Positions 2,499 through 59,647 of a DNA stretch of 64,000 nt are shown here, piece by piece. The DNA is from an uncultured Gammaproteobacteria bacterium (GTDB taxonomy: Bacteria > Patescibacteriota > Patescibacteriia > UBA11705 > JABHMO01). Below the pieces are notes generated by a model. The model saw only the letters and a list, made by a program, of their open reading frames with translations. It was not told the DNA's origin and did not search any database. The position numbers and the translations under genes are program-made. Location: the NCBI GenBank assembly GCA_964486065.1, contig CAZAKN010000003.1, forward strand, positions 18,559 to 82,558. Reading direction: 5' to 3'. The first letter of the stretch is position 1. Each line of letters opens with the position of its first letter.

Positions 2499-2596
2499 TT
2501 GCTTGTCTTATGCGGAAATTAAGTAAAAATTATAATACTATTCTTGATTTTTCAGCCACATCAAGCGACTTGTATAGGGTTTAATCAAATCCGTAC

Positions 2597-2624
2597 AGGT
2601 CGCCTGAGGCGGCCTTTTTTAATT
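2597..2624 (+). terminator. leader hairpin plus T6 (aggtcgcc-tga-ggcggcct-tttttt) inside the 5' leader of the ATP-grasp gene; candidate attenuator/riboswitch terminator
   Basis: 8-bp stem (one G-U pair) followed by TTTTTT. Lies between the predicted promoter and the SD-supported ATG at 2664. Confidence 0.45.
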
Positions 2625-2663
2625 TCCTGGCGTAAGTTGTTTCACATCAAAGGGAGGTGGCAG

Positions 2664-3803
2664 ATGTCTTTGCCGGTTGGTCGTATTGTTAACCATAATG
2701 TCGTGCAAGCTGTGGGAGGAGTTATGAGCAGATATTTGAATCATGATTTGGCGGATTGTTTGCCGGAACATGAGCTGGCTATGATTTTGGGTCTGGCCAA
2801 ATATTCTTCGCGCGCTTTGTGCATTACCGAGCCGGAAGATATTATTCAACTGGATCCGGTTTTGCGTGATCAAGTTGATAGTATTACGGCTCATTATCGT
2901 CGCGTGGGTTTACAATGTACGGATCAGATAATTTGGAGCGATGAATTCGCCAAAGCGAAAGATTATCCGGAACGGGAACTGTCGGTATTTTTTTTCGGTA
3001 GTCGCGCTCATCAAGCCAGACCCGATCAAGGTTGGTTTGACACGGCCGAGCGGATGAATCATAAAAACGAATTTATCCGTCTTTGCCATGAAATGAACAT
3101 ACTGGTGCCGGAAACACAATGTTTTGATTGCAAAAGTCGGATCAAAGACTTGAGGGAGTTAAAATATCCGCTTCGTTTCAAGCTGTCTTTCTCGGTTTCC
3201 GGTTTGGGAATTTCTTTGTGTAAAAACGATACTGATTTGGGTAAATGTTTGGAAGAAATCCCCGAGGGGGTGGCGTTCCAGGTTCAAGAAGAATTGCCGG
3301 CAAGTACGGTTTGGCTCAATGTGCAATATCAAGGTAACGGTAGAGCCAAAAGGTTACTCTTGACGGAGCAGGTCTTGGACGGTAATTCCCATGCCGGTAA
3401 CAAGCATCCGAGTGATTATGGCAATATTTGGAACTTGACCGATCCCTTGGCTGAGCGTTTGACCGGCCAAGGACTGAAAGGCGTGTTTGCTTTTGATGTG
3501 GCGGTTTGCCATGACCGCAAATTGTTGATTGAATGTAATCCCCGTTTCAACGGTAGCACTTATCCCACCGTGATTTCCACGCGGCTCAATATCCCGCAAT
3601 GGATTTCCAAAAATTTCATGACTAAATATCGTAGTATCGCAGAATTGCCGATTGAAGAGCTGGAGTATCGGCCGGAAGCTAAAAAAGGCGTGATTGTTTT
3701 TAACTGGGGCTCGGTGGATGAAGGTAAGCTTGGGATTATGTTGTGCGGTAATCAAGATGATCAGCTTTATTTGGAAAAAGCTTTGAAAACCATCCTTTCC
3801 TGA
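2664..3803 (+). CDS. ATP-grasp domain ligase (unknown substrate)
   Basis: ATP-grasp catalytic E-x-N-x-R motif (ECNPRFNGST). Start chosen at the ATG preceded by GGGAGGTG at 6-nt spacing; the track's 2544 start is TTG and would run through the leader hairpin. Confidence 0.6.
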   Translation: MSLPVGRIVNHNVVQAVGGVMSRYLNHDLADCLPEHELAMILGLAKYSSRALCITEPEDIIQLDPVLRDQVDSITAHYRRVGLQCTDQIIWSDEFAKAKDYPERELSVFFFGSRAHQARPDQGWFDTAERMNHKNEFIRLCHEMNILVPETQCFDCKSRIKDLRELKYPLRFKLSFSVSGLGISLCKNDTDLGKCLEEIPEGVAFQVQEELPASTVWLNVQYQGNGRAKRLLLTEQVLDGNSHAGNKHPSDYGNIWNLTDPLAERLTGQGLKGVFAFDVAVCHDRKLLIECNPRFNGSTYPTVISTRLNIPQWISKNFMTKYRSIAELPIEELEYRPEAKKGVIVFNWGSVDEGKLGIMLCGNQDDQLYLEKALKTILS

Positions 3804-7465: not shown

Positions 7466-7974
7466 AGTATTAGCGTTTAGCCAATCATTCCAAAGCTTTT
7501 TGCATGCCCGGACCGTAAACACCGTCGGCTTGCCCCGGTTTTAAACAGTTGAGTAAAATTAACAGTTTTTGAACGCGTAAAACTTTCTCATTACTAGTGT
7601 TGTAATTCATTTGATAAACATCATCAACTTGTCAAGGTTTATGGGTTACCGTGTATTGGCCGACTGAGCGCAATCTTGTGGCTGTGGTACTGTTCTGCAA
7701 TTTTTTGGTTTTTTTCATTATTTCTTGCAATTTGAGCGACTGAGACACTTCGTCACCAAATTTGCTTTCGTTAAAATAACTTGCTATCAGCATAAAAGGG
7801 AAAATGGAGATGGTTAACCCGATTCCCATTTTATCTTCAGCGGTTAGTTTTGTCATGACAAAAGCCTTTGTTTGGTTTGTGAATGTTCAACATTTAAATA
7901 TATGTTACGAGGCTACTTCTATCAAACGCGAGTATTATGATATAATAATAAAAAGAATAATTAATTTAAAAATT

Positions 7975-9396
7975 ATGAAGAAAACCTTAGCTATTTTCGT
8001 GTTGACGACCATGCTTTTGTCAGTTTTTTCTTTGGGAGTCAATCAAGTTTCAGCGCATGGTGACGGTTATACGGATTGTGAAAAAGATCCGGTTTACGCC
8101 AAAGATTTTACCGCTAGTCCCACCGTTCATTTGCGTTTGCGCGAAAGAGCGTGCATGACCGATTCGCCGGTAATTACGGTGTTAAGTCCCAATTCAAACT
8201 ATCAGATTATCGCGGAAACGGACGGCTGGTATAAAGTGAAACTTGATGACGGTACCACCGGTTGGGCCGGTTCAGCTTTGATGCAAGCCACAAGCGCTGA
8301 TTATGCCAATAATGAAAAATTAAGCGATGCTTATGAAGCCGATGAAAAAACGATTGAAGCGAATGAATCATTAAATAAGGAAGAAAAGCAAATAACCGAT
8401 CGCGTCAAAGGCTACATTTTATTACAAGTGGAATCAGCCGGAGAAGCTTGGTATGTTGATCCGGTGGAAGAAAAAAGATTTTACATGAAAGATGGTCCGA
8501 CCGCTTATGAAATGATGCGCAGTTTCGGTTTGGGGATTTCCAATGGTGATTTGGAAAAACTTTTGGCCGGTGATTACAAATTGACTGATCGTTTGAAAGG
8601 TCGTATTGTTCTGGCCGTGCATCGCAATGGTGAAGCTTATTACATTCACCCCAAGGATCGTTCCGTGCATTATTTGAAAAACGGTGTCGAGGCTTATCGT
8701 ATTATGCGTTTGCTCAGTTTAGGCATAACCAATCGGGATTTGCTGAAAATTCGCGCGAAAAATGTCGTGAAAAACAAAATCGCGGAAAAGAAAAATACGG
8801 CTCCCGTAGAACATAATGGTTCCATTACTTTATCCGCGGAGGAAAGTAACGGTAATGTTTATTTAGATTGGTCGGTTGACGGTTTTAATTCCGCTAAAGG
8901 ATTTAAAGTGGTGATTTCAGAAGAGCCAAATCCGGTTTATCCCGGCAATACATACCATTATCATGCTTCTTCGGAAAAGCGCGCTGACACATGGACCAAT
9001 CTGGCTTCAGGGAAAACTTACCATTTCCGAGTTTGCGAATATTTAGGCGGGGAATGCGGAGTTTACAGCAATGATGTCAGTGTAACCATGTCCGGTGAAA
9101 TTATTGATAATTCTCAAGGTGTTATCACTTTGGATGGTGAAGTTAGTTCGGAAAACAAAGTTTTGTTGAATTGGTCTTTAAGTGAAATGATTTCACCAAA
9201 GGGATTTAAAGTGGTGATTTCAGAAGAGCTAAATCCGGTTTATCCCGGTAACACATATCATTATTTGAGTAATTCCGAAGTGCGTACCGATACTTGGAGC
9301 GGATTAAACAGTGGTACATATCATTTCCGAGTTTGCGAATATTTGGGTGGGAAGTGCGGAGTTTATAGTAATAATTTTCAAGTAACAATTGAATAG
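7975..9396 (+). CDS. secreted repeat protein: signal peptide, SH3b-like domain, two ~55-aa repeats, two Fn3-like repeats
   Basis: Signal peptide MKKTLAIFVLTTMLLSVFSLGVNQVSA; SH3b-like YQIIAETDGWYKVKLDDGTTGW; internal protein and DNA repeats. Confidence 0.6.
   Translation: MKKTLAIFVLTTMLLSVFSLGVNQVSAHGDGYTDCEKDPVYAKDFTASPTVHLRLRERACMTDSPVITVLSPNSNYQIIAETDGWYKVKLDDGTTGWAGSALMQATSADYANNEKLSDAYEADEKTIEANESLNKEEKQITDRVKGYILLQVESAGEAWYVDPVEEKRFYMKDGPTAYEMMRSFGLGISNGDLEKLLAGDYKLTDRLKGRIVLAVHRNGEAYYIHPKDRSVHYLKNGVEAYRIMRLLSLGITNRDLLKIRAKNVVKNKIAEKKNTAPVEHNGSITLSAEESNGNVYLDWSVDGFNSAKGFKVVISEEPNPVYPGNTYHYHASSEKRADTWTNLASGKTYHFRVCEYLGGECGVYSNDVSVTMSGEIIDNSQGVITLDGEVSSENKVLLNWSLSEMISPKGFKVVISEELNPVYPGNTYHYLSNSEVRTDTWSGLNSGTYHFRVCEYLGGKCGVYSNNFQVTIE
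8897..9389 (+). repeat. two ~190-bp near-identical direct repeats (8897-9087 and 9198-9389) encoding the Fn3-like modules
   Basis: Long identical stretches, e.g. ggatttaaagtggtgatttcagaagag... and ...catttccgagtttgcgaatattt. Confidence 0.8.
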
Positions 9397-12060: not shown

Positions 12061-13047
12061 ATGATCGTGACAACATACGGAACTCGCGGAAGCGTGCCTG
12101 TTTCTCGCCCCGGAACCGCCAAGTACGGCGGTAACACCACATGTTTGCGAGTTGATTCGGATTGCTTGCCAAAAGACACTTGGCTGGTGATTGATACCGG
12201 TTCGGGTTTTGTGCCATTGGCATACGACGCCTTGAAAGCCGGTGTTAAGCGGATTATCATACTGCAAACACATCACCACCATGACCACAATCAAGGTTTG
12301 CTTTTGGCGCCGATAACCTTCATCAAGAGCATCCCGATCCACATTTACGGTCCCGTGCAAAATGGTGTCGGTCCCAAAGAAGTTCTGGAACAAGTGATGC
12401 GAAAGCCACTTTTCCCGGTGGACTTCAAGCAGGTGGCCAGCCATTTCCACATCAACAAATTTGAATACCCCGGCAATCAGGTGTTTCTGATCCATCCGGT
12501 CGGCGGTTTCAAGCGGTTGGATGTGGACAGCTACGAAAGATCTCTGGATCAAGGCAAATTGATGTCATTCAGCTCCAAGACATCCTTTGATGTTGACGAG
12601 TGTTTGGTGATCAAGATGCACTCTACGGAACATCCGGAGCAAACGGTTTCGTACCGTTTTGAAGACCGTCCGCGAGGGCGCGTTTTCTGTCTGCTTACGG
12701 ACCACGAGAATCAGGACGGTATCCCACTTTCTTTGCGTGCGCATTTGAAAGAAGCGGATTTGCTGATTCAGGATGTTCAGTTTGATGAGGTAACCTACAT
12801 GGAACGCACGGCCGGATTCGGTCATGGTACCGCCAAGTATGCCGTTCGTTTGTCCAACTTGGTTGGGGCAAAAAGATTGGGTTTAACCCACCACGATCCC
12901 ATGAGCGATGATGACCAAGTGGAAGTCATTTTGACTGAAGCGCGGGAAAACGCTCATCGCGCCAGAACTGAAACGGGTGAAGAAGGAAACGGCCTTGCCG
13001 ATGAACAAATCTTCGCCTGTCAAGATTACGGCGTCTACGAGGTCTAA
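12061..13047 (+). CDS. MBL-fold metallo-hydrolase (unknown specificity), GC-rich outlier
   Basis: HHHHDHNQGL (H-x-H-x-D-H) metal site. SD GGAGGAAGGAG. GC visibly near 50% versus ~37% for the window. Confidence 0.65.
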   Translation: MIVTTYGTRGSVPVSRPGTAKYGGNTTCLRVDSDCLPKDTWLVIDTGSGFVPLAYDALKAGVKRIIILQTHHHHDHNQGLLLAPITFIKSIPIHIYGPVQNGVGPKEVLEQVMRKPLFPVDFKQVASHFHINKFEYPGNQVFLIHPVGGFKRLDVDSYERSLDQGKLMSFSSKTSFDVDECLVIKMHSTEHPEQTVSYRFEDRPRGRVFCLLTDHENQDGIPLSLRAHLKEADLLIQDVQFDEVTYMERTAGFGHGTAKYAVRLSNLVGAKRLGLTHHDPMSDDDQVEVILTEARENAHRARTETGEEGNGLADEQIFACQDYGVYEV

Positions 13048-13801: not shown

Positions 13802-13817
13802 AATTTGAATAAATTTT

Positions 13818-13852
13818 AAAGGAGCCGTATTGATACGGCTCCTTTTTGTTTG
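13818..13852. terminator. bidirectional terminator (ggagccgta-ttga-tacggctcc plus T-run)
   Basis: Perfect hairpin between ndk and the convergent lipoprotein gene. Confidence 0.75.
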
Positions 13853-13856
13853 GTGG

Positions 13857-14252
13857 TCAGTATTTCACGCAGGAAATCTCCGCAATCTCACATGATTCAC
13901 ACATGAGATTTCCGGCATGACTTTCCACATCACAGAAGCGACTTCTTTTTTTCGCTTCCGCCCTGCCGTAAGTCTGAACATCAGCAATATAATCGCAAGC
14001 TTGATGCTTTTTGCAATTATGCGAGCTGATGTAACAGACACCGTTGAAATCGTAGCGAGCTTCCACGGCCGCGCAAGTGCCGTCAAACCGCCCACTGACG
14101 AAATCGTCAATGTTTTGCCTCGTGCATTCCTTGTTGTTACATTGGCGCAGTGTGACACAAGCGCCGTCCAGTTCTTCGTCTTGAAAATCACACGGTGCTT
14201 CCATGCAACCCGTTAAGACGAAGAAAAAAATCAAAAAGAAAAGAGCTTTCAT
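13857..14252 (-). CDS. cysteine-rich secreted lipoprotein (14 Cys; lipobox LTGC)
   Basis: Start MKALFF preceded by GGAGG. GC-rich body. Paralog of 16089-16847. Confidence 0.6.
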   Translation of the reverse strand: MKALFFLIFFFVLTGCMEAPCDFQDEELDGACVTLRQCNNKECTRQNIDDFVSGRFDGTCAAVEARYDFNGVCYISSHNCKKHQACDYIADVQTYGRAEAKKRSRFCDVESHAGNLMCESCEIAEISCVKY

Positions 14253-14296
14253 GGTTTCCTCCATTTTTTTGAAATTAACAAAAAACCAATTATTTA

Positions 14297-14325
14297 ATTA
14301 TATCATAATTTTTACAAAAAGTCAA
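14297..14325 (-). promoter_or_regulatory. consensus promoter TTGACT-17-TATAAT (minus strand) for the Cys-rich lipoprotein
   Basis: Reverse complement reads ttgact-ttttgtaaaaattatga-tataat. Confidence 0.6.
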
Positions 14326-14371
14326 TCACGCAATCCGATTAACCTTAAAATTTGACTAAAATTAAATAAAA

Positions 14372-14400
14372 AAGCCGACTAGTTTTAGTCGGCATGATTT
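14372..14400. terminator. terminator (gccgacta-gttt-tagtcggc flanked by A/T runs) downstream of the 419-aa gene
   Basis: Perfect 8-bp hairpin. Confidence 0.7.
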
Positions 14401-15659
14401 TATTGACATTTCTTGCAACCATTGATTTTTTCTCGGGCCGCGAACGAACCGCGAATAATGCCTTCTTGAACTTTTTTAAAGGCTTGTTCAGTGGTCGGAT
14501 CTTCCCAATCCACTCCGAAGATGCTGGTGGGAAAATAGTAAGGAAACAAAGACCAAAGTTGTCGCAAGCGGTAGTAATGGTGATTTTCTTCGCCCAGTGA
14601 ATAGTTTCTATTGAAATAATCACGGAAGTGAAAAATTTGCACTTCCACCAAAATTCCCAAAATGTGAACCGTAAACTTTATTTCCGGTTGAGAGCCTTGT
14701 GAAAAGGATTTGGTATTGGGATATTTGGCGCCATTGCCACAGATTTGCGAATTGTACAGCACGCCACCGTTCAGAAAAATTTTGTTCATTAAACGATTGA
14801 TTCCTTGTTCCAGATCGTTTTCCGAGAAAAAGATCAGCGAGATGCCATGCTTGTCGTAAGAGCTGGGATATTCGGCCGTGCTTTTCAAGTGCGTTTTTTC
14901 CTGATCGCGGTCGCGAGTCTTGTTGCGACTGTCAAACATTACCGAAATGTGTCGGTCGCCTTCAGCGGGAATTCGCCGAGTGGCTACTTTCATCTCCCAG
15001 ACATTGTCGGCTCCGTTTTGGCTGAAAGCATGAAATCTTTTTTGCGGAGTTTTGTCGCAGATTACTTTGAGCGGAACTTTATCAATTCCGCCGGCAAAAT
15101 ATTCTTCTTCCAGGAGTTGCGTGAAGATGCTGAAATCTTCAGTGGCGAAAAGCTGGTTGTGTACCGCCATCATAAAAGCTCGCATGGCGTAATGCCAATA
15201 GAGATTGGCCAAAAAGGATCGTCTTTCACGCAAATCTTTTTCTTTCCCGGGCGGCTCCCAAACGTAGATCAACAATCTACGCGGATCATTGGTGATACTG
15301 ACGATGCCGTCTGAAGAAAAAATATTTTTCAACTTTTCCGGAAAAAATTTTTCCACGGTATTATTGAAATAATTTTTGGCATCTTGGATGGCGCGCGTGA
15401 AATACTGGTAAGCGATTTTTTGCGTCAAACCGTTACCGGCCGATCTTTGTAGCATTTGGCTGATCATTTTTTCACCTTTGGATTCCGAAGTTTTAACGAT
15501 TTCCAAATAAAGATTGTGCAAGGGCATGAGTTTCATCCAAGCCAAAGGGTAAACTTGTTTAAAGTTTTTTCCGTCATGTTGTTTTTTAAAATCGCTTTCA
15601 GGCATCATGAAAAGTTGTGGCAAGTTTTCCGGAGAAATGATATCTGACAAATCTTTCAC
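14400..15659 (-). CDS. orphan 419-aa hypothetical protein (GTG start, AGGGGG SD)
   Basis: Long ORF with its own RBS and terminator. No family motif recognised. C-terminal CKKC. Confidence 0.55.
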   Translation of the reverse strand: MKDLSDIISPENLPQLFMMPESDFKKQHDGKNFKQVYPLAWMKLMPLHNLYLEIVKTSESKGEKMISQMLQRSAGNGLTQKIAYQYFTRAIQDAKNYFNNTVEKFFPEKLKNIFSSDGIVSITNDPRRLLIYVWEPPGKEKDLRERRSFLANLYWHYAMRAFMMAVHNQLFATEDFSIFTQLLEEEYFAGGIDKVPLKVICDKTPQKRFHAFSQNGADNVWEMKVATRRIPAEGDRHISVMFDSRNKTRDRDQEKTHLKSTAEYPSSYDKHGISLIFFSENDLEQGINRLMNKIFLNGGVLYNSQICGNGAKYPNTKSFSQGSQPEIKFTVHILGILVEVQIFHFRDYFNRNYSLGEENHHYYRLRQLWSLFPYYFPTSIFGVDWEDPTTEQAFKKVQEGIIRGSFAAREKINGCKKCQ

Positions 15660-15786
15660 TCATTACCCCCTAATGGTTGTTTTGGTAAAGAACAGCACGA
15701 TAGCAGACTATCAATAATTCGGTTTTTTGTAAAGCCTTTCTCTGTCTTGATTTTATTAAAAATGTTATGATGTTGATGATATAAAT

Positions 15787-16035
15787 ATGGATATACAAGA
15801 AATTCGTGACAACATAAAAAAAACCGATGACAAAATTTTTGATTTGTTTATCACTCGTTTTGAATTGGTAGCGAAAATTCGTAGTTTGAAAAAGGCGCGC
15901 GGTTTAAAAGTTAAAGATAAAACAAGAGAAAAGGAATTGATTGAAAAACAAATTTCCAGAGCCGGTTTACCGGAAAAATTTATAAAAAAAATTTATAAAA
16001 CCGTTTTTAAACAAGCTTACAGGATTTTGAAATAA
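15787..16035 (+). CDS. chorismate mutase, AroQ class (monofunctional, ~82 aa)
   Basis: AroQ helical pattern IRDNIKKTDDKIFDLFITRFELVAKIRSLK. Confidence 0.6.
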   Translation: MDIQEIRDNIKKTDDKIFDLFITRFELVAKIRSLKKARGLKVKDKTREKELIEKQISRAGLPEKFIKKIYKTVFKQAYRILK

Positions 16036-16049
16036 ATTTTGGCAAAGTT

Positions 16050-16086
16050 AAAAGGCGTCCGAATTTTCGGTACGCCTTTTTTGTAT
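16050..16086. terminator. bidirectional terminator (aaaggcgt-ccgaattttcgg-tacgcctttttt)
   Basis: Hairpin plus T6. Confidence 0.7.
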
Positions 16087-16088
16087 TG

Positions 16089-16847
16089 TTATTCTTCCTG
16101 AGTTTGCAGGTCATAAGCCACGCAAAACACGGCTTTGATCCTGCAGGTGATACTGCACTGCGCGTCTTGTTCGCAGTTTTCCGTGTGGATGCCACAGGCA
16201 CATCCGCCATATCCGTACCGCGATTTGAAATCATCGCAATAGCCGTCCGCCAAGTGAGGGCAGGGGCAATAATACGGATTTTGTGTGGAGCGGATCAATT
16301 GATTGGCATCCCGCCGATCGCAATCACCGCACTCTACGATGGTGACATCCGGCTTATTGCCTTCCACCACATCCCAGTCCGGCTCGCCGGACGAACTCCC
16401 GCCGGAGTTTTGTTGGCGTCCTGACGGCTCGGAATCAGCATCCGGCGAATCGTATCCCGCACTGTTTACAGTGTCGGGACCGTCATCATTGACGATGCTT
16501 CCGGAATGCACCAAGCAATACACTTGCGTGATATTGCAGTCATAGGTGCAGATCTGCGCTTCTTCTTCCTCGCAGTCCGATTCCGCGCCACAGGTGCAAT
16601 CCTGCAACCCCGCCAAGCCACAGTAGTGGCTACTCAGATCCTGGCACAGCAAGGAGTACTTGCTGTCTCGGATCCAAGATTCGGCACCCGCCTGGTCCAG
16701 CTCCAGCATGGAGTGAACGGTCACGCGGGTGCCGTTGTTTGTGGTGAATGTTTTCGCATCCTCCTCAAATTTACCGATTGAGGGGACATCTTTCTCACCG
16801 CAGGCGGTGAGGGAAACAAGGATCAAGAAAAAAACGAAAAACCGCAT
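16089..16847 (-). CDS. cysteine-rich secreted lipoprotein paralog (~24 Cys; lipobox LTAC; acidic/Ser-Gly-rich linker)
   Basis: Start MRFFVFF preceded by AAGGAGG. GC-rich (~55%). Shares the DDF-S-R-x-G-CA core and a C-terminal C-x2-3-C-x-I-x4-C-V-x-Y motif with 13857-14252. Confidence 0.6.
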   Translation of the reverse strand: MRFFVFFLILVSLTACGEKDVPSIGKFEEDAKTFTTNNGTRVTVHSMLELDQAGAESWIRDSKYSLLCQDLSSHYCGLAGLQDCTCGAESDCEEEEAQICTYDCNITQVYCLVHSGSIVNDDGPDTVNSAGYDSPDADSEPSGRQQNSGGSSSGEPDWDVVEGNKPDVTIVECGDCDRRDANQLIRSTQNPYYCPCPHLADGYCDDFKSRYGYGGCACGIHTENCEQDAQCSITCRIKAVFCVAYDLQTQEE

Positions 16848-16886
16848 AATAAACCTCCTTGAAAATTGTAAAAATAACAACATTCA

Positions 16887-16915
16887 ATTATATCATTTTA
16901 AATTAAATTTGTCAA
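16887..16915 (-). promoter_or_regulatory. consensus promoter TTGACA-17-TATAAT (minus strand) for the second Cys-rich lipoprotein
   Basis: Reverse complement reads ttgaca-aatttaatttaaaatga-tataat. Confidence 0.6.
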
Positions 16916-16997
16916 ACATGATTATGAGAAATTGGCTAAATTTAAATAAATTCACAATATTTATTGTAAAAAAATGAAGATATTCAGTCAAAATAAT

Positions 16998-17025
16998 TGA
17001 AAAAAAGTCGCCAAAGGTTTATAAT
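16998..17025 (+). promoter_or_regulatory. promoter TTGAAA-16-TATAAT for the metallophosphoesterase gene
   Basis: Read from the sequence. Implies a short leader and a start at 17039. Confidence 0.5.
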
Positions 17026-17038
17026 AAGTGCAGTTTAT

Positions 17039-17731
17039 ATGCTTCAAAAACACAAAAAAGTATTCATAACTGGAGACTTGCATTTGGGCGATATTCATTT
17101 TCGGTTTGAAGACAAATTATTAAAGGCCATTAAACAAGATAGTTATGATTGTTTGGTTTTCGGTGGCGATACATTTGATCCGTGGCGAGGTCAAAGTATT
17201 GAAGAATTGATTATTAAATATCATGAAATCTTCAAAGAATTGCAACGCTTAAAAGCCAAAGTGGTTTTTATTCGCGGTAATCATGATCCGAACATTGATG
17301 TATTGAGAAAATACGGATTTGAAGTTCGTAAAAATTATTCATATATTGCGCCGGATAAAAAGAAAGTCAGAATCATGCACGGACATGAATTTGATATTAT
17401 GAGTCAAAAAGTGGAATTTATTACGCGCAAACTTATTTATCTTGAAGAACGCATAAATGAATTCTTAAACAAAGTTAACGAAGAATACGCCGTGCGGATA
17501 ATTGAACTTCTCGGCAATTTGGATTTGCAACGCGTGATTGATAATTTTTATTCCAAAATTAAAAAATATAAAAATTGGGACAAACTTATTTTCGGTCATG
17601 TTCATGTGCCGTGGGAAGGTCATCGTCAAAATTTGGATTTTTACAATTGGGGCAGTTGGCAAGGACATTATGGCACGGCGCCCAGTTATATCACGCATTT
17701 ACCGGGAAAGATCAAAATGGTTCAAGTTTAA
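17039..17731 (+). CDS. calcineurin-like metallophosphoesterase
   Basis: Motifs GDLHLGD, GGDTFD, RGNHD, HGHEFD, GHVH. Confidence 0.75.
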   Translation: MLQKHKKVFITGDLHLGDIHFRFEDKLLKAIKQDSYDCLVFGGDTFDPWRGQSIEELIIKYHEIFKELQRLKAKVVFIRGNHDPNIDVLRKYGFEVRKNYSYIAPDKKKVRIMHGHEFDIMSQKVEFITRKLIYLEERINEFLNKVNEEYAVRIIELLGNLDLQRVIDNFYSKIKKYKNWDKLIFGHVHVPWEGHRQNLDFYNWGSWQGHYGTAPSYITHLPGKIKMVQV

Positions 17732-17735
17732 TCAA

Positions 17736-17763
17736 GGCGCCCCGTCTCCAGAGGGGCGTTTTA
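17736..17763 (+). terminator. intrinsic terminator (cgcccc-gtctccaga-ggggcg-tttt)
   Basis: GC-rich hairpin plus T-run. Lies inside the track's over-extended 637-aa ORF, supporting a downstream start. Confidence 0.7.
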
Positions 17764-17768
17764 TCTAT

Positions 17769-19451
17769 ATGACAAAAAAACAAAATAAAATTCATTGGTT
17801 AAGTTGGGTGGGTATAATTTTCATGCTTTTACTATCCGCCGGGTTGAGTTATTTGATGGTACAGAGATTGAATGTTGATTCGGAAACTGTAGCGGAAGAA
17901 TCTGTGGATTTGAATGTAAAAAAGAATTTTTGGAATTTTTCTCAAGCTGAACCGGAACCTGAACAAGTTCTGCAAAAAGAAGTGGAACAGATCGCCAAAC
18001 AAGCTTTGACAAATATTGCGGAAAAACCAAGTGAGCCCCCGGCGGAGCCGGAACCGAAAACTTTTCGAGATAAAATAAAGCAAAATATTTTGCCACAATA
18101 CGAGGATATTGTTTATAAAGATTTGTTCAGTGAGTATTATTTTGATTTTGGTCCGATAGTTGATTGTGAAGAAGTATTGTGTCCGGGGTACAGTTATGCC
18201 TCGGCATTGGATCCTTTAAGCGGTCAAGTCCGAAATTATTTGTCAGCCGGAGTGGGAACGAATTTTTTACTTAACCAATTGCCGGATCAAAATTTAAATT
18301 TGGTGGTGGTGATTGATATTTCTTCCGCCATGTCCGAGAGCTTTGAAAAACTTCCGGCTAACAGTCCTTTGGCGGATCGTAGCAAGCTGGCTTTATTGCT
18401 TGACGGTTTGGCTTCGCGTATTGAACTTTTAAAACCTCAAGATCGGTTGAGTATTGTTTTGGTAAATGAGCAAGTCCATTTGGCCATGCCTTTTTACGAA
18501 GTGCGGTCAATTGATTTAAGTGAATTGAAAAAGCATTTGTTGAAGATCAGACCGCAAGGTTCCGCCAATATGCCGGCGGGTTTGCGAACGGCAATTGAGT
18601 TAATTCAAAACAGCGGACAAGGTATTATAAATCAATCGGAAAATCGTATTTTGGCCTTTTCCGCGTCTGGTTATGCGGAGGAAATAAATCTACCGCAGAA
18701 AATTCATCTGAGTTTTTCTCATCTTGGTCAATATGACAATTTGCGTTTTGTTTCGCCGATTGATTCTTGGTTTGGAAGTAAGTATTTTGTTCTAACAGAT
18801 CCGGCCACCTTGAATGATTTTTTTAATGCCGAATTTCGTCGTCGCCTGATGCCACTGGCTTATAATTTACGATTGTCCGTTGATTCTCAAGACATGCCGA
18901 TTTTACAAGTATATGATGAAAAATATCAAGGTGAAGGAATCGTTTATTCAGATCCTACCGTGTTTCAAGATGATGATTTGATTTACGGTGATATTCCCAT
19001 GCGATTTATGCAAATGACGACTGCTACGGAGTCTCGTGAAGTGGTTATTCGTTTATCATATGATTTGCCGGATGGAGAGGCGAAAGAAGTGAAAAGGAAA
19101 ATTATTTTTGATGCCTCGCCGGGAACTTTCGTGAATTCAGGTTTACAAAAAGCGGTCTTGGTTTCGCTTTATGCGGATTTGATGAAAAGCTGGTTGATTG
19201 ACCAAAGATTATATTTATTTAATCGGAATGATCCTGATTATGTTTTTGTTCCTTTGATCGGAGAGGAAAAGGGCATATCTCCTCTGGCCGAAGATTTGTC
19301 AGTTCCTCAAGATGATTTTGCCTTGAGTGTTCATGATTATTATAAAAGCATGATTGTAAAGTTCAGCGAATTTTTTACCGAACAAAGGGAGATTTTAAAG
19401 GACTCATCATTATTGAAGGAGTTGGAAGTTTTGCAAAAAATGATTGAATAA
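17769..19451 (+). CDS. membrane-anchored von Willebrand factor A (vWA) domain protein
   Basis: N-terminal TM helix; MIDAS motif DISSAMS...T...D (VVVIDISSAMSE). Confidence 0.7.
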   Translation: MTKKQNKIHWLSWVGIIFMLLLSAGLSYLMVQRLNVDSETVAEESVDLNVKKNFWNFSQAEPEPEQVLQKEVEQIAKQALTNIAEKPSEPPAEPEPKTFRDKIKQNILPQYEDIVYKDLFSEYYFDFGPIVDCEEVLCPGYSYASALDPLSGQVRNYLSAGVGTNFLLNQLPDQNLNLVVVIDISSAMSESFEKLPANSPLADRSKLALLLDGLASRIELLKPQDRLSIVLVNEQVHLAMPFYEVRSIDLSELKKHLLKIRPQGSANMPAGLRTAIELIQNSGQGIINQSENRILAFSASGYAEEINLPQKIHLSFSHLGQYDNLRFVSPIDSWFGSKYFVLTDPATLNDFFNAEFRRRLMPLAYNLRLSVDSQDMPILQVYDEKYQGEGIVYSDPTVFQDDDLIYGDIPMRFMQMTTATESREVVIRLSYDLPDGEAKEVKRKIIFDASPGTFVNSGLQKAVLVSLYADLMKSWLIDQRLYLFNRNDPDYVFVPLIGEEKGISPLAEDLSVPQDDFALSVHDYYKSMIVKFSEFFTEQREILKDSSLLKELEVLQKMIE

Positions 19452-19452
19452 T

Positions 19453-19481
19453 TTGACATTGACAAGTGTTGCCTTTATGAT
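19453..19481 (+). promoter_or_regulatory. promoter TTGACA-17-TATGAT
   Basis: Read from the sequence. Confidence 0.45.
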
Positions 19482-19513
19482 AGTCGCAGTTTTCGTTAAC
19501 CAAGGAGATGCTC

Positions 19514-19891
19514 ATGCCCATAATGGTTGTTTACGGCTTATCCGAATTTCACTTGGAGAACAGAACGAATTTGATAAATTACAATCAGGCTTTACGCGAT
19601 ACTTTGAATGATTTCCCGGAGTTAGGCTTGCGTTCCGGGCAGATGTCGGTATATTTTCCCGTTGATTTTTTCAATTTGCTGGGTGAAGAAATTGTAATTA
19701 AAATATCAGGTATGCCGACCGAAGGAAGGGCTACTGATGATTTACGCGAATGGCTGAAAAGCATTGTTCGGTTAACCCATAAATTTTTCGCTACCGCTTT
19801 GGTGGAAGTGATAATTGAGAGTTTTGATCCCGGCTTGAGTTATTTGGAAAAATTTCATAAATCATCCAAAGGAGAACATGATGAGCAATGA
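19514..19891 (+). CDS. hypothetical protein
   Basis: Start at MPIMVV with AGGAGA 6 nt upstream. No family recognised. Confidence 0.45.
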   Translation: MPIMVVYGLSEFHLENRTNLINYNQALRDTLNDFPELGLRSGQMSVYFPVDFFNLLGEEIVIKISGMPTEGRATDDLREWLKSIVRLTHKFFATALVEVIIESFDPGLSYLEKFHKSSKGEHDEQ

Positions 19892-20135
19892 AAAAAGCGA
19901 AAGAATGATTGATTCGCAAGAAAGTCAGAAAGAGCAAATTCCGCAGAATGAAATGGAGTTACTATTACCGAATCTGCGCACCGGTTTGGGTAAGCCATCC
20001 AAGCGTCGTTTCGGCACTTGGGTTTCCGTTATTTTGTTCTTTTTCTTTCTAGGTGTTTTTTACACTTTGAGTGGCGTGATTTTTCCGAACCCCACCCCGC
20101 CGAACGATCATGAACAATCTGTCGTTCACCGATAA
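19878..20135 (+). CDS. small hypothetical membrane protein (one TM helix)
   Basis: SD AAGGAGA; overlaps the upstream stop by 14 nt; hydrophobic VSVILFFFFLGVFYTLSGVIF. Confidence 0.4.
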   Translation: MMSNEKSERMIDSQESQKEQIPQNEMELLLPNLRTGLGKPSKRRFGTWVSVILFFFFLGVFYTLSGVIFPNPTPPNDHEQSVVHR

Positions 20136-20143
20136 TATCAATC

Positions 20144-20174
20144 TCGCTTCGCTCGCAAGGCGAAGCTTTTTTAT
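20144..20174 (+). terminator. intrinsic terminator (cgcttcgc-tcgcaa-ggcgaagc-tttttt)
   Basis: Hairpin plus T6. Confidence 0.7.
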
Positions 20175-20235
20175 TTCATTATTTTGCAAAACAAGACTTG
20201 CGAGATTTATCCATTTTTATATACTTAAAGAAAAT

Positions 20236-20994
20236 ATGACTGTTAAAAAAAGATTGAGTTCCGCTTCGCGGGGATTTGCCAAAGGAAATTTTGTCATAAT
20301 CGCCGGTCCTTGCGCGGTGGAGAATCGTAACAATTATTTAAAAACATGTCGCGCCTTACAATCCACCGGACGCGTGGATTTTTTTCGCGGTGGCGCTTTT
20401 AAACCGCGCACCAAAGCGGAATCGTTTCAAGGTTTGGGTGAAGATGGTTTGAAAATAATGCTTGAAGTGAAAGAAAAATATCAGACGCTATTGATTAGCG
20501 AATGTTTATCGGAAAAGCACATTGAACTAATGGAAAAATATGTTGACATTATCCAAGTCGGTTCTCGTAATATGTATAATTATGAATTACTGAAAGCGCT
20601 TGGGAAAATCAAAACACCGATTTTATTGAAACGAGGTTTGAGCGCCACGATTGATGAATGGTTGTCAGCCGCTGACTACATTATTCGCGGTGGCAATAAA
20701 AATGTGATTCTTTGCGAAAGAGGTATCAGAAGTTTTGATGACAAATATACTCGTAATGTTTTGGATATTTCCGCTGTACCGGTTGTTAAAAAGATTTCTT
20801 CATTACCGATAATCGTGGATCCAAGTCACGCGACTGGAAGAAGAGATTTGATTATTCCACTATCCGTCGCGGCGAAGGCGGTGGGCGCGGATGGCATAAT
20901 GGTGGAAGTAAACGCTGAGCCAGAGCAAGCTTTGTGTGATGGCCGGCAATCTTTGAACATTGCTGAATTTAAACAATTGCTTAAAAAAATATAA
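20236..20994 (+). CDS. 3-deoxy-7-phosphoheptulonate (DAHP) synthase, type I-beta / KdsA-like fold
   Basis: IIAGPCAVE signature; (beta/alpha)8 motifs KRGLSAT and IVDPSHATGRRD. Confidence 0.8.
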   Translation: MTVKKRLSSASRGFAKGNFVIIAGPCAVENRNNYLKTCRALQSTGRVDFFRGGAFKPRTKAESFQGLGEDGLKIMLEVKEKYQTLLISECLSEKHIELMEKYVDIIQVGSRNMYNYELLKALGKIKTPILLKRGLSATIDEWLSAADYIIRGGNKNVILCERGIRSFDDKYTRNVLDISAVPVVKKISSLPIIVDPSHATGRRDLIIPLSVAAKAVGADGIMVEVNAEPEQALCDGRQSLNIAEFKQLLKKI

Positions 20995-21002
20995 TAATAA
21001 AA

Positions 21003-21032
21003 AAAGAAGCGCTTATTTGAGCGCTTCTTTTT
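21003..21032. terminator. bidirectional terminator (aagaagcgct-tatttga-gcgcttcttttt)
   Basis: Perfect hairpin between DAHP synthase and rpmB. Confidence 0.75.
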
Positions 21033-21204
21033 ATTTGGCTTTATTCATTGTTTTTAAACATTTGGTACAGAGTTTTACGGTTTTACCATCAATTTTTTTG
21101 CTTTGTAAATTGATGCTTTGAGTTCTTTTCGTGGCAATCATTGAGTGACTGCGCGAAATGCTGGCTTTGGGCCCTCTGCCACATACTTGGCATTTTCTGG
21201 ACAT
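21031..21204 (-). CDS. rpmB: 50S ribosomal protein L28
   Basis: MSRKCQVCGRGP...RSHSMIATKR. Confidence 0.8.
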   Translation of the reverse strand: MSRKCQVCGRGPKASISRSHSMIATKRTQSINLQSKKIDGKTVKLCTKCLKTMNKAK

Positions 21205-21298
21205 ATTATTGTAAATAAGAATTATTGTATTATAGCCATAGACTAGCATATATGATATAATTTTTCAAGTATTCATTATATATTAATTTCATTTTGAT

Positions 21299-47900: not shown

Positions 47901-49325
47901 TTACACTTTTGATTTTCGTCGTAGAACTATCCATGGAGTTTTCAGCATTATCCAAAAGTCCAATTTTAGCGACCAATTTTCAATATAATAAGTATCCAGT
48001 TTTACTTCTTCGTTAAAATCCAAATCGCTACGGCCGGAAATTTGTGCCAAGCCGGTAACTCCCGGTTTGATGTCAAGAACTCTTCTTTGCGCTTTGGTGT
48101 ATTGAGTGACTTCGCGAGGTTGATGAGGGCGAGGTCCGACCAAGCTCATGTTGCCGATCCAAACATTAAAAAATTGTGGCAATTCATCAAGTGAAGTTCT
48201 TTCCAGAAATTTACCGATTTTGGTGCGACGAGGATCGTTCAGTATTTTATAAACCGGTCCTTGTCGTTCAGATTGTTTTTCAATCAAATCTTTTTCAAAT
48301 TCCAAAACCGCTTTTTGGTCGGTGTATTTTTCAAACTGTTTACCGGTGCAATATTTGGTGTACATGGAACGGAATTTATAAGTATTAAAAGTACCTTTAC
48401 GCGTAACTCGTTCATTTTTATAAATGGCCGGACCGGAATCTTCAATTTTAATCAACAAAGCAAGCAATAACATAAGCGGTGAAAAAACAATTATCAAAAT
48501 CGTGCTGAAGACGAAGTCAATGATTCTTTTGATTATTTTACCCCAACCGTCCAACTTGGTTTTTCTGATTTCAATAATCGGCAAGCCGGCATACATGTGA
48601 AATTCCACATTGGTGGTACGAGCTTCAAATTGACCGGCGGTATATTTGAAAACAATGTTATAAGCATTGCAAAAATCCAGAAGTTTTACCGATTGACTGC
48701 GAGAAAGTCCGGCATCGGCTTGGATTATTTCATCCAAAGAATATATTTCATTTATTTTTTCCAATTCATCCTGATTGAAGTCTTTCATTTTTTTAATAAC
48801 TTTGTAACCGAATTCAGGATATTTTTTAAAATACGCGGTTAGCTCATCAGTGTATTTATCGTTGCCGACGATTACGACATTGTGCGCGCCCCAGCCTTTT
48901 TTTAAACTGTAATTTTGAACTTTGCGCATGATTATTCTGACGATTGAAACGAAAATCATGGCCAAAATCCAAGCGGTTAAAACAATAAAACGAGAAGCAA
49001 ATATTTCTCTGACAAAAAACATGTAAATCAGCACCGCGGTCATGCCCGTGGAGCAAGCTAAAATTATTTTCGCGAGTTCGTCCGTGATTTTTCTTTTTTT
49101 AAAATTGTACAATCCCGACCAAATAAAAAAAATCAGCCAAATAGTGGCGATGATTAAAGTTGAAAATAAATACGCTTTGAAAGATAATTCAAAAATTACC
49201 GGTCTGATTTCTTGAACATCGCTTTGATAACGCAAAACATAAGCTAAAAGTCCGGCTGAAATCAAAGCCAAATAATCAAAAGGAATTTTTAAAAAAGTAA
49301 AAAATAATTCGGTTTTCTTTTTCAT
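47901..49325 (-). CDS. polyprenyl-phosphate sugar phosphotransferase (WbaP/bacterial sugar transferase family)
   Basis: C-terminal motifs RTSLDELPQ and MSLVGPRP; N-terminal TM helices. Start trimmed to MKKKTELFF because the track's upstream extension overlaps rnpB. Confidence 0.8.
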   Translation of the reverse strand: MKKKTELFFTFLKIPFDYLALISAGLLAYVLRYQSDVQEIRPVIFELSFKAYLFSTLIIATIWLIFFIWSGLYNFKKRKITDELAKIILACSTGMTAVLIYMFFVREIFASRFIVLTAWILAMIFVSIVRIIMRKVQNYSLKKGWGAHNVVIVGNDKYTDELTAYFKKYPEFGYKVIKKMKDFNQDELEKINEIYSLDEIIQADAGLSRSQSVKLLDFCNAYNIVFKYTAGQFEARTTNVEFHMYAGLPIIEIRKTKLDGWGKIIKRIIDFVFSTILIIVFSPLMLLLALLIKIEDSGPAIYKNERVTRKGTFNTYKFRSMYTKYCTGKQFEKYTDQKAVLEFEKDLIEKQSERQGPVYKILNDPRRTKIGKFLERTSLDELPQFFNVWIGNMSLVGPRPHQPREVTQYTKAQRRVLDIKPGVTGLAQISGRSDLDFNEEVKLDTYYIENWSLKLDFWIMLKTPWIVLRRKSKV

Positions 49326-49383
49326 ATAATTATTATAGCACAATAAGCGTTTCAGCCGTATGTATAAAGATTTATTTCCAAAG

Positions 49384-49688
49384 CCCCGAACAAGCGAGTA
49401 AGCCGGATTCTGTTTTAACCGTAATCTATCTGGGACGACCGTCGCCGATCGCCTTAAGCGGGCTACCAAATTTGCCCTTGCACTCGAGTAAGGATTTAGC
49501 CGTTTCACCCGCCATGTTGCCATGGCGACTATTCCCGAAGGAATCCGAATCAATCACTTGATCCAGCGTCTCTGCTCGCACCTCTATCTCACGATTGACA
49601 GGAATTACCTGCTACCCGTGTTAATTGAATAACCGAGTGTCCGGACTTTCCTCCCTTGAAGAGGGTAACGGAACTGCTTGTTCGGAAC
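49384..49688 (-). ncRNA. rnpB: RNase P RNA (bacterial, compact ~305 nt)
   Basis: Minus strand reads P1 ccgaacaagc...gcttgttcgg, P4 GGGAGGAAAGUCCGGACAC, AGCAGGUAA, GGGUGAAACGGC and 3' ACAGAAUCCGGCUUA. GC-rich island inside AT-rich DNA. Confidence 0.8.
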
Positions 49689-49694
49689 TGATTT

Positions 49695-49723
49695 ATAATA
49701 ACAAAAAAACGCAAATTTGTCAA
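49695..49723 (-). promoter_or_regulatory. consensus promoter TTGACA-17-TATTAT (minus strand) placing the TSS at the predicted rnpB 5' end
   Basis: Reverse complement reads ttgaca-aatttgcgtttttttgt-tattat. Confidence 0.6.
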
Positions 49724-49755
49724 TGTTTTTTGTAAATTTAGATAAAATTGACTAA

Positions 49756-49784
49756 TTGTAAAAAGTTGAGTTTTAGTATATAAT
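49756..49784 (+). promoter_or_regulatory. promoter TTGTAA-17-TATAAT for the receiver-domain gene
   Basis: Read from the sequence. Confidence 0.45.
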
Positions 49785-49823
49785 TGGGAAGTTATTTGCA
49801 CATTCAATAAAGACAAAACGGAG

Positions 49824-50222
49824 ATGAACATGATAATAATGAAAAATGATAGTTATGTCAGAGTTTTGGTGGTGGAAGATGAAGAGAGAAATGTTTTTTT
49901 GGTGCGCAAAGTGTTGGAAGAATTGCCGTGCCAAACGGTTTTTGTACGAAGCGCGGAAGAAGCCTTATCCGTTAATGATTTACCGGAATATGATCTGATC
50001 TTGTTGGATATGGTTTTACCGGGGATGAGTGGCTGGAAGTTCACGGAAGTAGTGAGACAAAAAGGTTTGACCGTTTACATTGTGGCGCTTTCAGCGGCGG
50101 CAATGAAAGAAGAAGTGGAACGGGCTTTTCAAGCGGGAGTAAACGAATATATAACCAAACCATATTATTTGGATGCTATCCGCAATGTGATTGCCGAAAT
50201 CATTGAAAACAAAAACGGCTGA
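49824..50222 (+). CDS. stand-alone response-regulator receiver (CheY-like) domain protein
   Basis: VLVVEDEE..., phospho-acceptor D in LLDMVLPGMSG, conserved K in YITKP. Confidence 0.75.
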   Translation: MNMIIMKNDSYVRVLVVEDEERNVFLVRKVLEELPCQTVFVRSAEEALSVNDLPEYDLILLDMVLPGMSGWKFTEVVRQKGLTVYIVALSAAAMKEEVERAFQAGVNEYITKPYYLDAIRNVIAEIIENKNG

Positions 50223-55368: not shown

Positions 55369-55506
55369 ATTTATTGAAAGATATTTAATTTTAGCGAATT
55401 TCCAATAACCACATTATAGCAATGATTATTGTCCGTGTCAATCCCAAAGCTGAAAAAACAAGCTCCAGCAGGGCTGTTTCTATGGTTTTCCACAATTGGT
55501 TAAAGT

Positions 55507-55552: not shown

Positions 55553-56302
55553 ATGATTATAAAAGATGAAAAGCAGGTGGCGGAAATCCGTCGCGAGTTG
55601 CAAATTGAAAAAAAACATTGGTACAAAAAATGGTGGGGAATCGGCATTTTGTTGTTTTTGGCGATATTTTTTGTTTTTGTTTCCATCTTTATTTATGAAT
55701 TGGTGAAACTGTATCGTGATTTTGAACAAGGAACTTTATTGCCGGATAAAGAAGCTTTTGAAAGGCAAGCTGATTACGACATGGAAATGTTTATAGACGA
55801 AAGAGTGCCGGTTTTGGGGACCGAAGACGCGCCCATTAAAATAATTGAGTTCGGTGATTTTAATTGTCCGTATTGCAAGCAAGCGGCCGGACATTTGCGC
55901 AAAATCATGAATAAGTATCCGGATCAAGTGAAAGTATATTGGTTAAATATGCCGGTGGTGACCGAAGCTTCTTTTTTGTTGGCGGCCGGCGGAGTATGCG
56001 CTCATGCTCAAGATAAATTTTGGTCGTATCATGACGCCTTATTGGATCATAGTGGAGAATCAACAGCTGAAGACATGGTGGATTTGGCCTTTGATTTAAA
56101 TATGGATGCTGAAAAATGGGATGAATGCATTACTCATAAATTAACTATAGCAAAAGTTCGCAAAGATTTATATTTATCCGAAGATGTGGACGCTCAAGGC
56201 ACTCCGACTTTTTTAATCAACGGCGTTAAAGTCGCCGGAGTGGTGACTTTGGCCAAATGGGAAGAGTTGGTGGAATTATTGTTAACCGTTTATGATCAAT
56301 AA
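55553..56302 (+). CDS. membrane-anchored DsbA-like thiol:disulfide oxidoreductase
   Basis: TM helix plus thioredoxin fold with CPYC active site (FGDFNCPYCKQ). Confidence 0.8.
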   Translation: MIIKDEKQVAEIRRELQIEKKHWYKKWWGIGILLFLAIFFVFVSIFIYELVKLYRDFEQGTLLPDKEAFERQADYDMEMFIDERVPVLGTEDAPIKIIEFGDFNCPYCKQAAGHLRKIMNKYPDQVKVYWLNMPVVTEASFLLAAGGVCAHAQDKFWSYHDALLDHSGESTAEDMVDLAFDLNMDAEKWDECITHKLTIAKVRKDLYLSEDVDAQGTPTFLINGVKVAGVVTLAKWEELVELLLTVYDQ

Positions 56303-56834
56303 TATGAAACAAATAAGAATTCACGGCCGAGGCGGACAGGGAGCGGTAACCGCTGCTGAACTTTTGGCACAAGCGGCTTTTTCCGAAGGTAAGTTTGTAC
56401 AGGCTTTTCCGAATTTCGGAGTGGAAAGACGCGGTGCGCCGGTAAAAGCTTTTGTCAGGATTTCAGGAAAAGAAATATTGGCTCGTGATCAAGTCTATTT
56501 TCCGGATTATTTAATCATACAAGATGAAACGCTTTTGTTAAATGAAAGTGAAGTTTTGCAAGGAACGGAAAAAGCCGAGATGATTATTATTAATTGTGAA
56601 ACAAGTGATTTGCCGAAAGCCGTTTGCGTACCCGCCACCAAGATCGCATTGGAAGAAATCGGTAAGCCGTTTATCAATACGCCGATGCTCGGAGCTTTTG
56701 CCGCGGCCACAGGTTTAATCAAACCGAAATCATTGGAAAAGGTATTTATGGATAGATTCCAAGGAGAAATTTTGCGGAAAAATATAAAAGCCATGAAAAG
56801 AGCTTATGATTATGTTAAATCTTTAAATTTATGA
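56292..56834 (+). CDS. porG: 2-oxoacid:ferredoxin oxidoreductase gamma subunit
   Basis: IRIHGRGGQGAVTAAELL. Confidence 0.85.
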   Translation: MINNMKQIRIHGRGGQGAVTAAELLAQAAFSEGKFVQAFPNFGVERRGAPVKAFVRISGKEILARDQVYFPDYLIIQDETLLLNESEVLQGTEKAEMIIINCETSDLPKAVCVPATKIALEEIGKPFINTPMLGAFAAATGLIKPKSLEKVFMDRFQGEILRKNIKAMKRAYDYVKSLNL

Positions 56835-57097: not shown

Positions 57098-57111
57098 TAA
57101 TTTTCAATCAC

Positions 57112-58251: not shown

Positions 58252-58252
58252 T

Positions 58253-59641: not shown

Positions 59642-59647
59642 AACCAT

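Follow-up and report, generated by a model that had tools for sequence, protein, structure and literature searches.

The question raised by this locus is whether two genes for cysteine-rich lipobox proteins constitute, together with the two genes that lie between them, a dedicated functional unit. The stretch analyzed was a 64 kb portion of contig CAZAKN010000003.1 (hereafter the window; ~70 open reading frames (ORFs), GC content 0.380), in which gene A (13857-14252) and gene B (16089-16847) are located on the minus strand, with gene C, which encodes a 419-aa protein, and a chorismate mutase gene (CM) between them. An initial annotation of this DNA had described A and B as paralogs that bracket a self-contained unit with a dedicated partner enzyme. 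The explanation that best accounts for the present results, to which a probability of roughly 0.6 is assigned, is that A and B encode species-restricted, exported, acidic, Cys-rich proteins with predicted type II signal peptides and a new shared module, that both genes are monocistronic, and that they are part of an inserted block in which C and CM would be independent neighbors and not partners. A and B are therefore best read as species-specific accessory surface proteins rather than as a new multi-gene system. Comparisons were made with strains L005 (nearly identical) and L004 (~94% identical), three strains of the species being seen in all, and with 80 Patescibacteria loci containing NDK, for which 1.1 Mb of related sequence was scanned for lipobox proteins.

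Both minus-strand ORFs were present as annotated. Protein A has 131 aa and protein B 252 aa, and both are acidic (isoelectric points (pI) of 4.9 and 4.2, respectively). The predicted signal peptides, MKALFFLIFFFVLTGC in A and MRFFVFFLILVSLTAC in B, consist of a short basic n-region, a hydrophobic core of 11-12 residues, and a canonical lipobox at residues 13-16 (...FVLTGC in A and ...VSLTAC in B) that agrees in both proteins with the pattern [LVI][ASTVI][GAS]-C, so that the LTGC and LTAC assignments made earlier were correct. With the lipobox Cys included, A contains 13 cysteines (12 in the mature part) and B contains 20; the numbers first given (~14 and ~24) were overcounts. A and B are the sole lipobox ORFs of the window and, with the exception of ferredoxin and zinc-ribbon ribosomal proteins, its sole genuinely Cys-rich ORFs. 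The layout of B comprises the signal peptide (residues 1-16), a Cys-free segment (17-67), an 8-Cys module (68-113), a Ser/Gly/Asp-rich linker that had already been pointed out (114-166), and an 11-Cys module (167-252), and that of A comprises one module related to the C-terminal module of B, with an insertion of ~32 aa. At codon 25 of B (window position 16775), Cys replaces Gly in two other strains, which gives a mature Cys count of 20 and not 19, and the poly-Glu run of B has one extra Glu in the same two strains.

The internal duplication of B (residues 68-113 versus 194-242) was detected with a Smith-Waterman z of 7.1, a score reached in 0 of 2000 composition-preserving shuffles, and the repeated unit of ~45 aa and 8 Cys follows the pattern C-x7-C-x7/11-C-x-C-G-x4/5-C-x5/7-C-x3-C-x6-C-[VL]-x-[YH]. 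Mature A was aligned with the C-terminal half of B at z 4.6 (2 of 2000 shuffles, p ~0.001), and composition-adjusted BLASTP of A against B gave an E value of 0.001. The alignment extends from VTLRQC/VTIVEC through DGTC/DGYC to ...NC-x5-C, and the ~32-residue insertion of A lies ahead of the C-terminal C-x2/3-C-x-I-x4-C-V-x-Y that is common to A and B. In a three-way alignment of A with the N-terminal and C-terminal modules of B (B-N and B-C), six Cys and one Ile were invariant and the C-terminal motif, in the form C-x2/3-C-x-I-x4-C-[VL]-x-[YH], was in register, as the initial annotation had anticipated. The common core motif that it had proposed (DDFVSGRFDGTCAA / DDFKSRYGYGGCAC, 'DDF...') was not the best register and was replaced by that of DGTC in A with DGYC in B, which scores better and aligns four Cys. 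As a component of the overall explanation, and with the same confidence, A and B would share a previously undescribed module of ~45-60 aa with the pattern C-x7-C-x7..11-C-x-C-x5..6-C-x5..7-C-x3-C-x6-C-[VL]-x-[YH], present twice in B on either side of the linker and once, in degenerate form and with the insertion, in A; on these alignments, distant paralogy of A and B is probable.

Searches for relatives of A and B returned essentially the proteins themselves. A word-indexed search of 5.8 billion clusters with both proteins retrieved A and B themselves from conspecific strains and nothing else, and an exhaustive phmmer search with B against 1.84 billion representatives retrieved only B. For A and B, no family was found in Pfam and NCBIfam at E<=1, no match was found with PADLOC, only noise at E ~1 was obtained with phmmer against PDB sequences, and the single match in PHROGs was sub-threshold (A to phrog_17416 at E 0.18). 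There was no match of B in IMG/VR and none of a module alignment in the JGI metagenomes; both genes were absent from the 80 related Patescibacteria loci, and a literature search on cysteine-rich lipoproteins in Patescibacteria yielded nothing relevant. By these comparisons, A and B are true orphans, restricted to one species in the data searched. A related metagenome-assembled genome (MAG), L048, encodes a few kb from NDK (15825-16466, +) a 213-aa protein, membrane-anchored and very acidic, in which 16 Cys and CDP/ECD-type repeats are found; it is not homologous to A or B and shows the recurrence of Cys-rich exported proteins in the phylum.

According to the proposed explanation, A and B would be exported via Sec and possibly lipidated at Cys16, which would provide a lipid anchor, and their modules would be oxidized to compact disulfide-knotted domains on the cell surface, where, in an episymbiont, the two would likely act as surface or interaction proteins that evolve quickly. 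Modules with a Cys framework, conserved hydrophobic positions, and a flexible linker together suggest the architecture of disulfide-stabilized surface proteins; the taxonomic restriction, the placement in a variable region, and the strong promoters fit fast-evolving episymbiont surface or interaction factors. The window also encodes, at 55553-56302 (+), a transmembrane-anchored DsbA/Thioredoxin_4 protein with a CPYC active site, i.e., a predicted extracytoplasmic thiol-disulfide oxidoreductase, which makes extracytoplasmic oxidation plausible.

Several observations weigh against this explanation. The AlphaFold model of B, folded alone, was uninformative (pLDDT 37), lipobox proteins were rare across the 1.1 Mb of related loci, and a donor lineage for the proposed acquisition could not be identified. 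A hidden Markov model (HMM) of the two modules of B failed to retrieve A, and the A-B paralogy hangs on the p value of ~0.001. Furthermore, genes for pyruvate:ferredoxin oxidoreductase (PFOR) are present at 56292-60541, and the organism thus appears to be anaerobic, which makes oxidative folding less certain; the Cys counts are odd in the C-terminal module of B (11) and in mature B (19); and the CxC, CxxC, and CPC motifs and the acidity of the proteins suit metal binding equally.

It is from these last points that the main rival explanation is derived, namely that A and B are lipoproteins that bind metal outside the cytoplasm, in a metallothionein-like or metal-buffering manner, and whose reduced thiols would chelate Zn, Cu, Cd, or Fe in an anoxic habitat. 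Cysteine accounts for 8-17% of residues, depending on the segment or module, CxC (CTC, CAC, CPC) and CxxC (CGDC, CESC) motifs are present, the pI values are 4.2-4.9, and both the odd Cys count in the C-terminal module of B and the anaerobic metabolism implied by PFOR would be in keeping with free thiols. However, the fixed Cys spacing with conserved hydrophobic positions (I, V/L, Y/H) and the even Cys counts of A (12) and B-N (8) are typical rather of disulfide-knotted domains, a DsbA-like oxidase is encoded nearby, and neither gene has a metal transporter or metal regulator next to it. Metal binding is accordingly regarded as unlikely, albeit the strongest of the alternatives to disulfide-knotted surface proteins.

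Less probable is the explanation that A and B are two unrelated orphan ORFs that came to resemble each other by convergence, through a Cys/Asp/Gly-rich composition and generic signal peptides. In addition to the failure of the B-module HMM to retrieve A, it is favored by the phmmer search with B, in which no A-like sequences were reported among the 1.84 billion representatives, and by the comparison of A with B-N, which was not significant (z 0.5). It is at odds with the rarity with which composition-preserving shuffles reached the score of A against B-C, with the BLASTP result after composition adjustment, and with the six Cys that are in register across three modules. The upstream regions of A and B are also mutually the most similar: over 120 nt, their alignment score was 84, versus a maximum of 69-72 against 28 other upstream regions (shuffle z 3.3). 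The original description of A and B as paralogs is thus retained as probable on the strength of the alignment statistics and the Cys register, but the resemblance is weak.

Each of the genes A, C, CM, and B is a transcription unit of its own, and A and B are both monocistronic. The promoter of A (14297-14325, -) is TTGACT-17-TATAAT, which matches the consensus at 11 of 12 positions, and that of B (16887-16915, -) is TTGACA-17-TATAAT, which matches at 12 of 12; each includes an extended -10 TG, and the textbook promoters that had been proposed for the two genes were therefore borne out. The pattern TTGAC-N16-18-TATAAT occurs at four sites in the window versus 0.22 expected. The two remaining sites, also with a spacing of 17, are at 55413-55441 (-) and 60610-60638 (+), both with TTGCTATAAT, and they lie ahead of an SBP_bac_5 extracellular solute-binding protein gene and uvrA. 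GGAGG ribosome-binding sites, likewise as annotated, precede the ATG of A at 14252 by 5 nt (14258-14262, -) and the ATG of B at 16847 by 6 nt (16854-16858, -). An alternative ATG at 16883 falls at the -10 box of B or downstream of it, which indicates that the true start is 16847. Strain L004 retains, for A, the -35 and -10 hexamers as well as the ribosome-binding site.

Hairpin terminators were found between the genes, in agreement with the earlier description of them as strong. A bidirectional terminator serves the convergent A and NDK genes (13818-13845; -19.3 kcal/mol, z -8.2), C is followed by its own terminator (14374-14393, -; -13.2 kcal/mol, z -5.9), and a second bidirectional terminator separates the convergent B and CM genes (16050-16080; -18.2 and -19.2 kcal/mol, with 0 of 200 shuffles as stable). 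All of these hairpins had z <= -4.6 relative to shuffled sequences, far beyond the controls. The suggestion that A and B are highly expressed agrees with their near-consensus promoters but not with their codon usage, which deviates in the direction opposite to that seen for the ribosomal genes and EF-Tu; high expression is suggested by the promoter consensus only.

The substitution pattern among strains, taken together with the promoters, ribosome-binding sites, and terminators, indicates that A and B are genuine genes. Between the window and strain L005, B differs by six substitutions, five of them synonymous at third positions and one nonsynonymous (G25C), and by the insertion of an in-frame GAA within its poly-Glu run. 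In the first 34 codons of A, comparison with strain L004 showed hydrophobic-for-hydrophobic changes in the signal peptide and synonymous changes only in the mature part. For C versus strain L004, the ratio of nonsynonymous to synonymous substitution rates (dN/dS) was 0.09. As judged from these comparisons, A, B, and C are protein-coding and under constraint, and B is under purifying selection.

The GC content of B is 0.542 and that of A is 0.462, and the earlier estimate of ~50-55% for both genes thus applied to B and was too high for A. The GC content at third codon positions (GC3) of B (0.63-0.64) is the highest among the ~70 ORFs of the window (mean 0.355, standard deviation (sd) 0.079), followed by that of a second MBL-fold gene at 12061-13047 (0.56), A (0.50), and C (0.48). 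An expected GC content was predicted for each gene from its amino-acid composition and the window's own codon usage. The observed and expected values were 0.544 and 0.438 for B (z 10.9), 0.506 and 0.427 for the second MBL-fold gene (z 8.9), 0.423 and 0.372 for C (z 6.9), and 0.464 and 0.403 for A (z 4.4); background genes had an sd of 2.3 and a maximum of 5.3, with EF-Tu and the ribosomal genes negative. The excess after amino-acid correction is therefore strong for B and moderate for C, and that of A falls inside the background range. Amino-acid bias accounts for roughly one third to one half of the GC excess and the remainder is synonymous, so that a deviation beyond amino-acid bias, as had been suspected, does exist, although A remains within background. 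This synonymous shift runs opposite to that of native highly expressed genes. CM has a GC3 of 0.265, which is native-like or lower. The GC-shifted synonymous codons suggest acquisition from outside, or at least a history unlike that of the core genome.

Gene C (14400-15659, -; 419 aa, GTG start) is an independent gene that had been described as encoding a protein of no recognizable family, and standard searches agreed: Pfam returned nothing at E<=10, and the NCBIfam and PDB HMM searches were likewise without significant match. Its relatives are P0003 (95% identity) and P0004 (36% identity), the latter being the sole distant homolog; no further relatives were found in GTDB representatives, JGI metagenomes, IMG/VR, phages, or plasmids. 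The gene for P0004 (L003 2391-3557) is on a 4.1-kb contig of which 2.4 kb upstream and 0.5 kb downstream are visible, and its neighbors are genes for superoxide dismutase and a Na+/H+ exchanger as well as the beginning of an rRNA operon, with no Cys-rich or lipobox ORF on this contig. A second 419-aa ORF of the window (2544-3803) was considered as a paralog of C and was found to be unrelated, with a weak ATP-grasp match.

A possible relationship of C to the RelA/SpoT (RSH) synthetases was examined using structure, profile, and motif comparisons. The AlphaFold model of C, based on a three-sequence alignment, was poor (pLDDT 40), and its predicted order of secondary-structure elements, alpha-beta-alpha-beta-beta-beta-alpha, fits RSH. 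Among the best Foldseek matches obtained with this poor model, none of them significant, were an exported small alarmone synthetase (8vx3, E 0.31), the Tas1 (p)ppApp synthetase toxin, and the Rel proteins of M. tuberculosis and B. subtilis; other Pol-beta-type nucleotidyltransferases were also listed. With an in-house RSH synthetase alignment and HMM built from nine sequences, the best local match by hhalign aligned residues 244-293 of C to the motifs RxKx7K and DxxGxR, at a P of 0.02-0.04 and a probability of only 1-2%. The pattern R-x-K-x7-K...D-x12-D...E-x-[QH]...H-x2/3-Y-[KR], which was trimmed post hoc, occurs in C and P0004 at equivalent positions and in eight of nine true RSHs; in this trimmed form it was found in 0 of 40000 shuffles and, among 4454 ORFs, in none besides these. 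Retained in C, at spacings that match, are RxKx7K, the two Asp of Syn2, E-x-Q, and H-x2-Y-R. The absence of the Syn2 Arg, of GYxSxH (Syn3), and of the RT of EhQIRT argues against membership. The nine-sequence HMM failed to report C, yet it found a true RSH at 4e-50, and comparisons of C with E. coli RelA by hhalign and by Smith-Waterman with shuffles were non-significant. Membership of C in the RelA/SpoT family was accordingly not supported by standard statistics (hhalign, Smith-Waterman, RSH HMM, and profile-profile comparison), and motif colinearity and Foldseek enrichment remain in its favor. There is about an even chance, judging from motifs and a low-confidence model, that the helical N-domain of C is followed by a RelA/SpoT-like nucleotidyltransferase (NTase) domain of very high divergence; this is put forward as a lead and not as a classification. 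A more ambitious joint interpretation, in which A and B would represent a new disulfide-knotted surface fold, recently acquired by an episymbiont and expressed from strong promoters as host-attachment or manipulation factors, and C a new and extremely divergent branch among the RelA/SpoT-like nucleotide pyrophosphokinases, possibly toxSAS-like, is improbable when taken as a whole.

The genomic setting was evaluated using the 80 Patescibacteria NDK loci, in which a recurrent backbone of ComEC - MBL - NDK - (1-2 kb) - M50 protease - S12 was found, the distance of 1-2 kb between NDK and M50 being frequent among them. The window itself contains genes for ribosomal proteins, EF-G/EF-Tu, ComEC, and PFOR, in addition to RNase P RNA. 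Against proteins of the GTDB species representatives, its NDK reaches no more than 71% identity, and the best 80 matches are nearly all from Patescibacteria (Candidate Phyla Radiation, CPR) MAGs, e.g., Parcubacteria, Moranbacteria, and 'Saccharibacteria', a similarity profile that points to a CPR bacterium without a close sequenced representative among those species. NDK ends at 13801 and the M50 gene starts at 21299, with 7.5 kb between them. This lineage-specific block (13802-21298) is made up of the four genes A, C, CM, and B, two small ORFs, and genes for a metallophosphoesterase, a VWA protein of 593 aa, and a DAHP synthase. Near NDK, none of the 80 loci has any of the four or the gene for the metallophosphoesterase, VWA protein, or DAHP synthase, and the block as a whole has no counterpart there. 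Its composition is mosaic, with A, C, and B GC-shifted and CM GC-poor. No tRNAs were found in the window and no integrase or convincing flanking repeats in the block, and B and C were not found in IMG/VR, nor C in phage and plasmid collections; by these searches, the block shows no hallmarks of a mobile element or prophage. It is interpreted, from gene content and composition, as a variable, lineage-specific region for which outside acquisition is plausible, and the NDK-M50 interval may be an insertion hotspot. The possibility of lateral acquisition raised by the initial annotation is consistent with the lineage specificity and the GC and codon shift of the block, but no donor can be named. 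The second MBL-fold gene, MBL2 (12061-13047, +; 328 aa, 50% GC), is inserted after the conserved MBL1 and ahead of NDK; it has no counterpart in the 80 related loci and was probably acquired.

CM (15787-16035, +) encodes a stand-alone AroQ-type chorismate mutase of 82 aa (Pfam CM_2, 1.1e-14), and its identification as a monofunctional enzyme on the opposite strand was thereby confirmed. Functionally, the DAHP synthase encoded at a distance of 4 kb (20110-20994, +; Pfam DAHP_synth_1, 5e-70, with KDO8P synthase as an alternative) is a more natural partner for it than A and B are. In some Firmicutes, a CM domain regulates DAHPS. The presence of CM and a DAHP-synthase-family gene in one inserted block represents fragments of aromatic amino-acid biosynthesis, which are unusual for a reduced CPR genome.

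The idea of a self-contained unit with a dedicated partner enzyme was not upheld, and the linkage of the genes was seen only in strains of one species. That the four genes A, C, CM, and B constitute a single functional module of Cys-rich effectors or adhesins with an enzyme partner, as their adjacency, their retention together in three of three strains of the species, the GC-shifted codon usage of A, B, and C, and the position of A and B on either side of C and CM might indicate, is very improbable, given that each gene has its own promoter or terminator, that the orientations are mixed, that the sole distant homolog of C has no Cys-rich neighbor, that CM is native and low in GC and fits the DAHP synthase, and that conservation within a species carries no linkage information.

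Two further features of the window were noted. An RNase P RNA (bacterial class A, 107 bits) is located at 49383-49684 (-) and overlaps the listed ORFs 47901-49553 and 49589-49831, the ends of which are therefore likely spurious. An SH3_3-domain gene (7804-9396) contains a repeat of ~180 bp with 78% identity (8896-9072 versus 9198-9372), which represents an internal domain duplication.

CPR bacteria rely on host-cell contact; their genomes very commonly have orphan accessory genes located in variable regions, and species-specific surface proteins are common in them as well; to our knowledge, the surface proteins of CPR/Patescibacteria are almost entirely uncharacterized. As two putative Cys-rich lipoproteins that are confined to one species and have strong promoters, A and B make reasonable contact-factor candidates, and a small new fold may underlie them. 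The evidence points to no new mechanism or conserved system, and the practical value is modest: it consists of a well-delimited candidate for expression and structure work and a side lead on C as a cryptic RelA/SpoT-like enzyme.

Among known systems, the RSH synthetases, small alarmone synthetases, and toxSAS are comparable with C and P0004 in their colinear motifs with RSH-like spacing; C differs by an additional helical N-terminal domain of ~190 aa, by the missing Syn2 Arg, GYxSxH, and RT, and by non-significant profile searches. As putative lipoproteins, A and B share with bacterial lipoproteins (Lgt/LspA substrates) the n-region, the hydrophobic core, and LTGC or LTAC; lipobox proteins are rare in the related Patescibacteria loci. 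Metallothionein-like proteins are similar in their high Cys content and their CxC and CxxC motifs; A and B differ from them in having a lipobox export signal, a larger size, and conserved hydrophobic positions, and no homology was detected. The proteins match no Pfam, NCBIfam, PHROG, or PADLOC family and no PDB sequence, which distinguishes them from the described small disulfide-rich extracellular domains (EGF-like, knottin/defensin-type), to which their modules are nevertheless alike in length (45-60 aa), in having 8 Cys with fixed spacing including CxC, in tandem duplication with a flexible linker, and in their predicted extracytoplasmic location.

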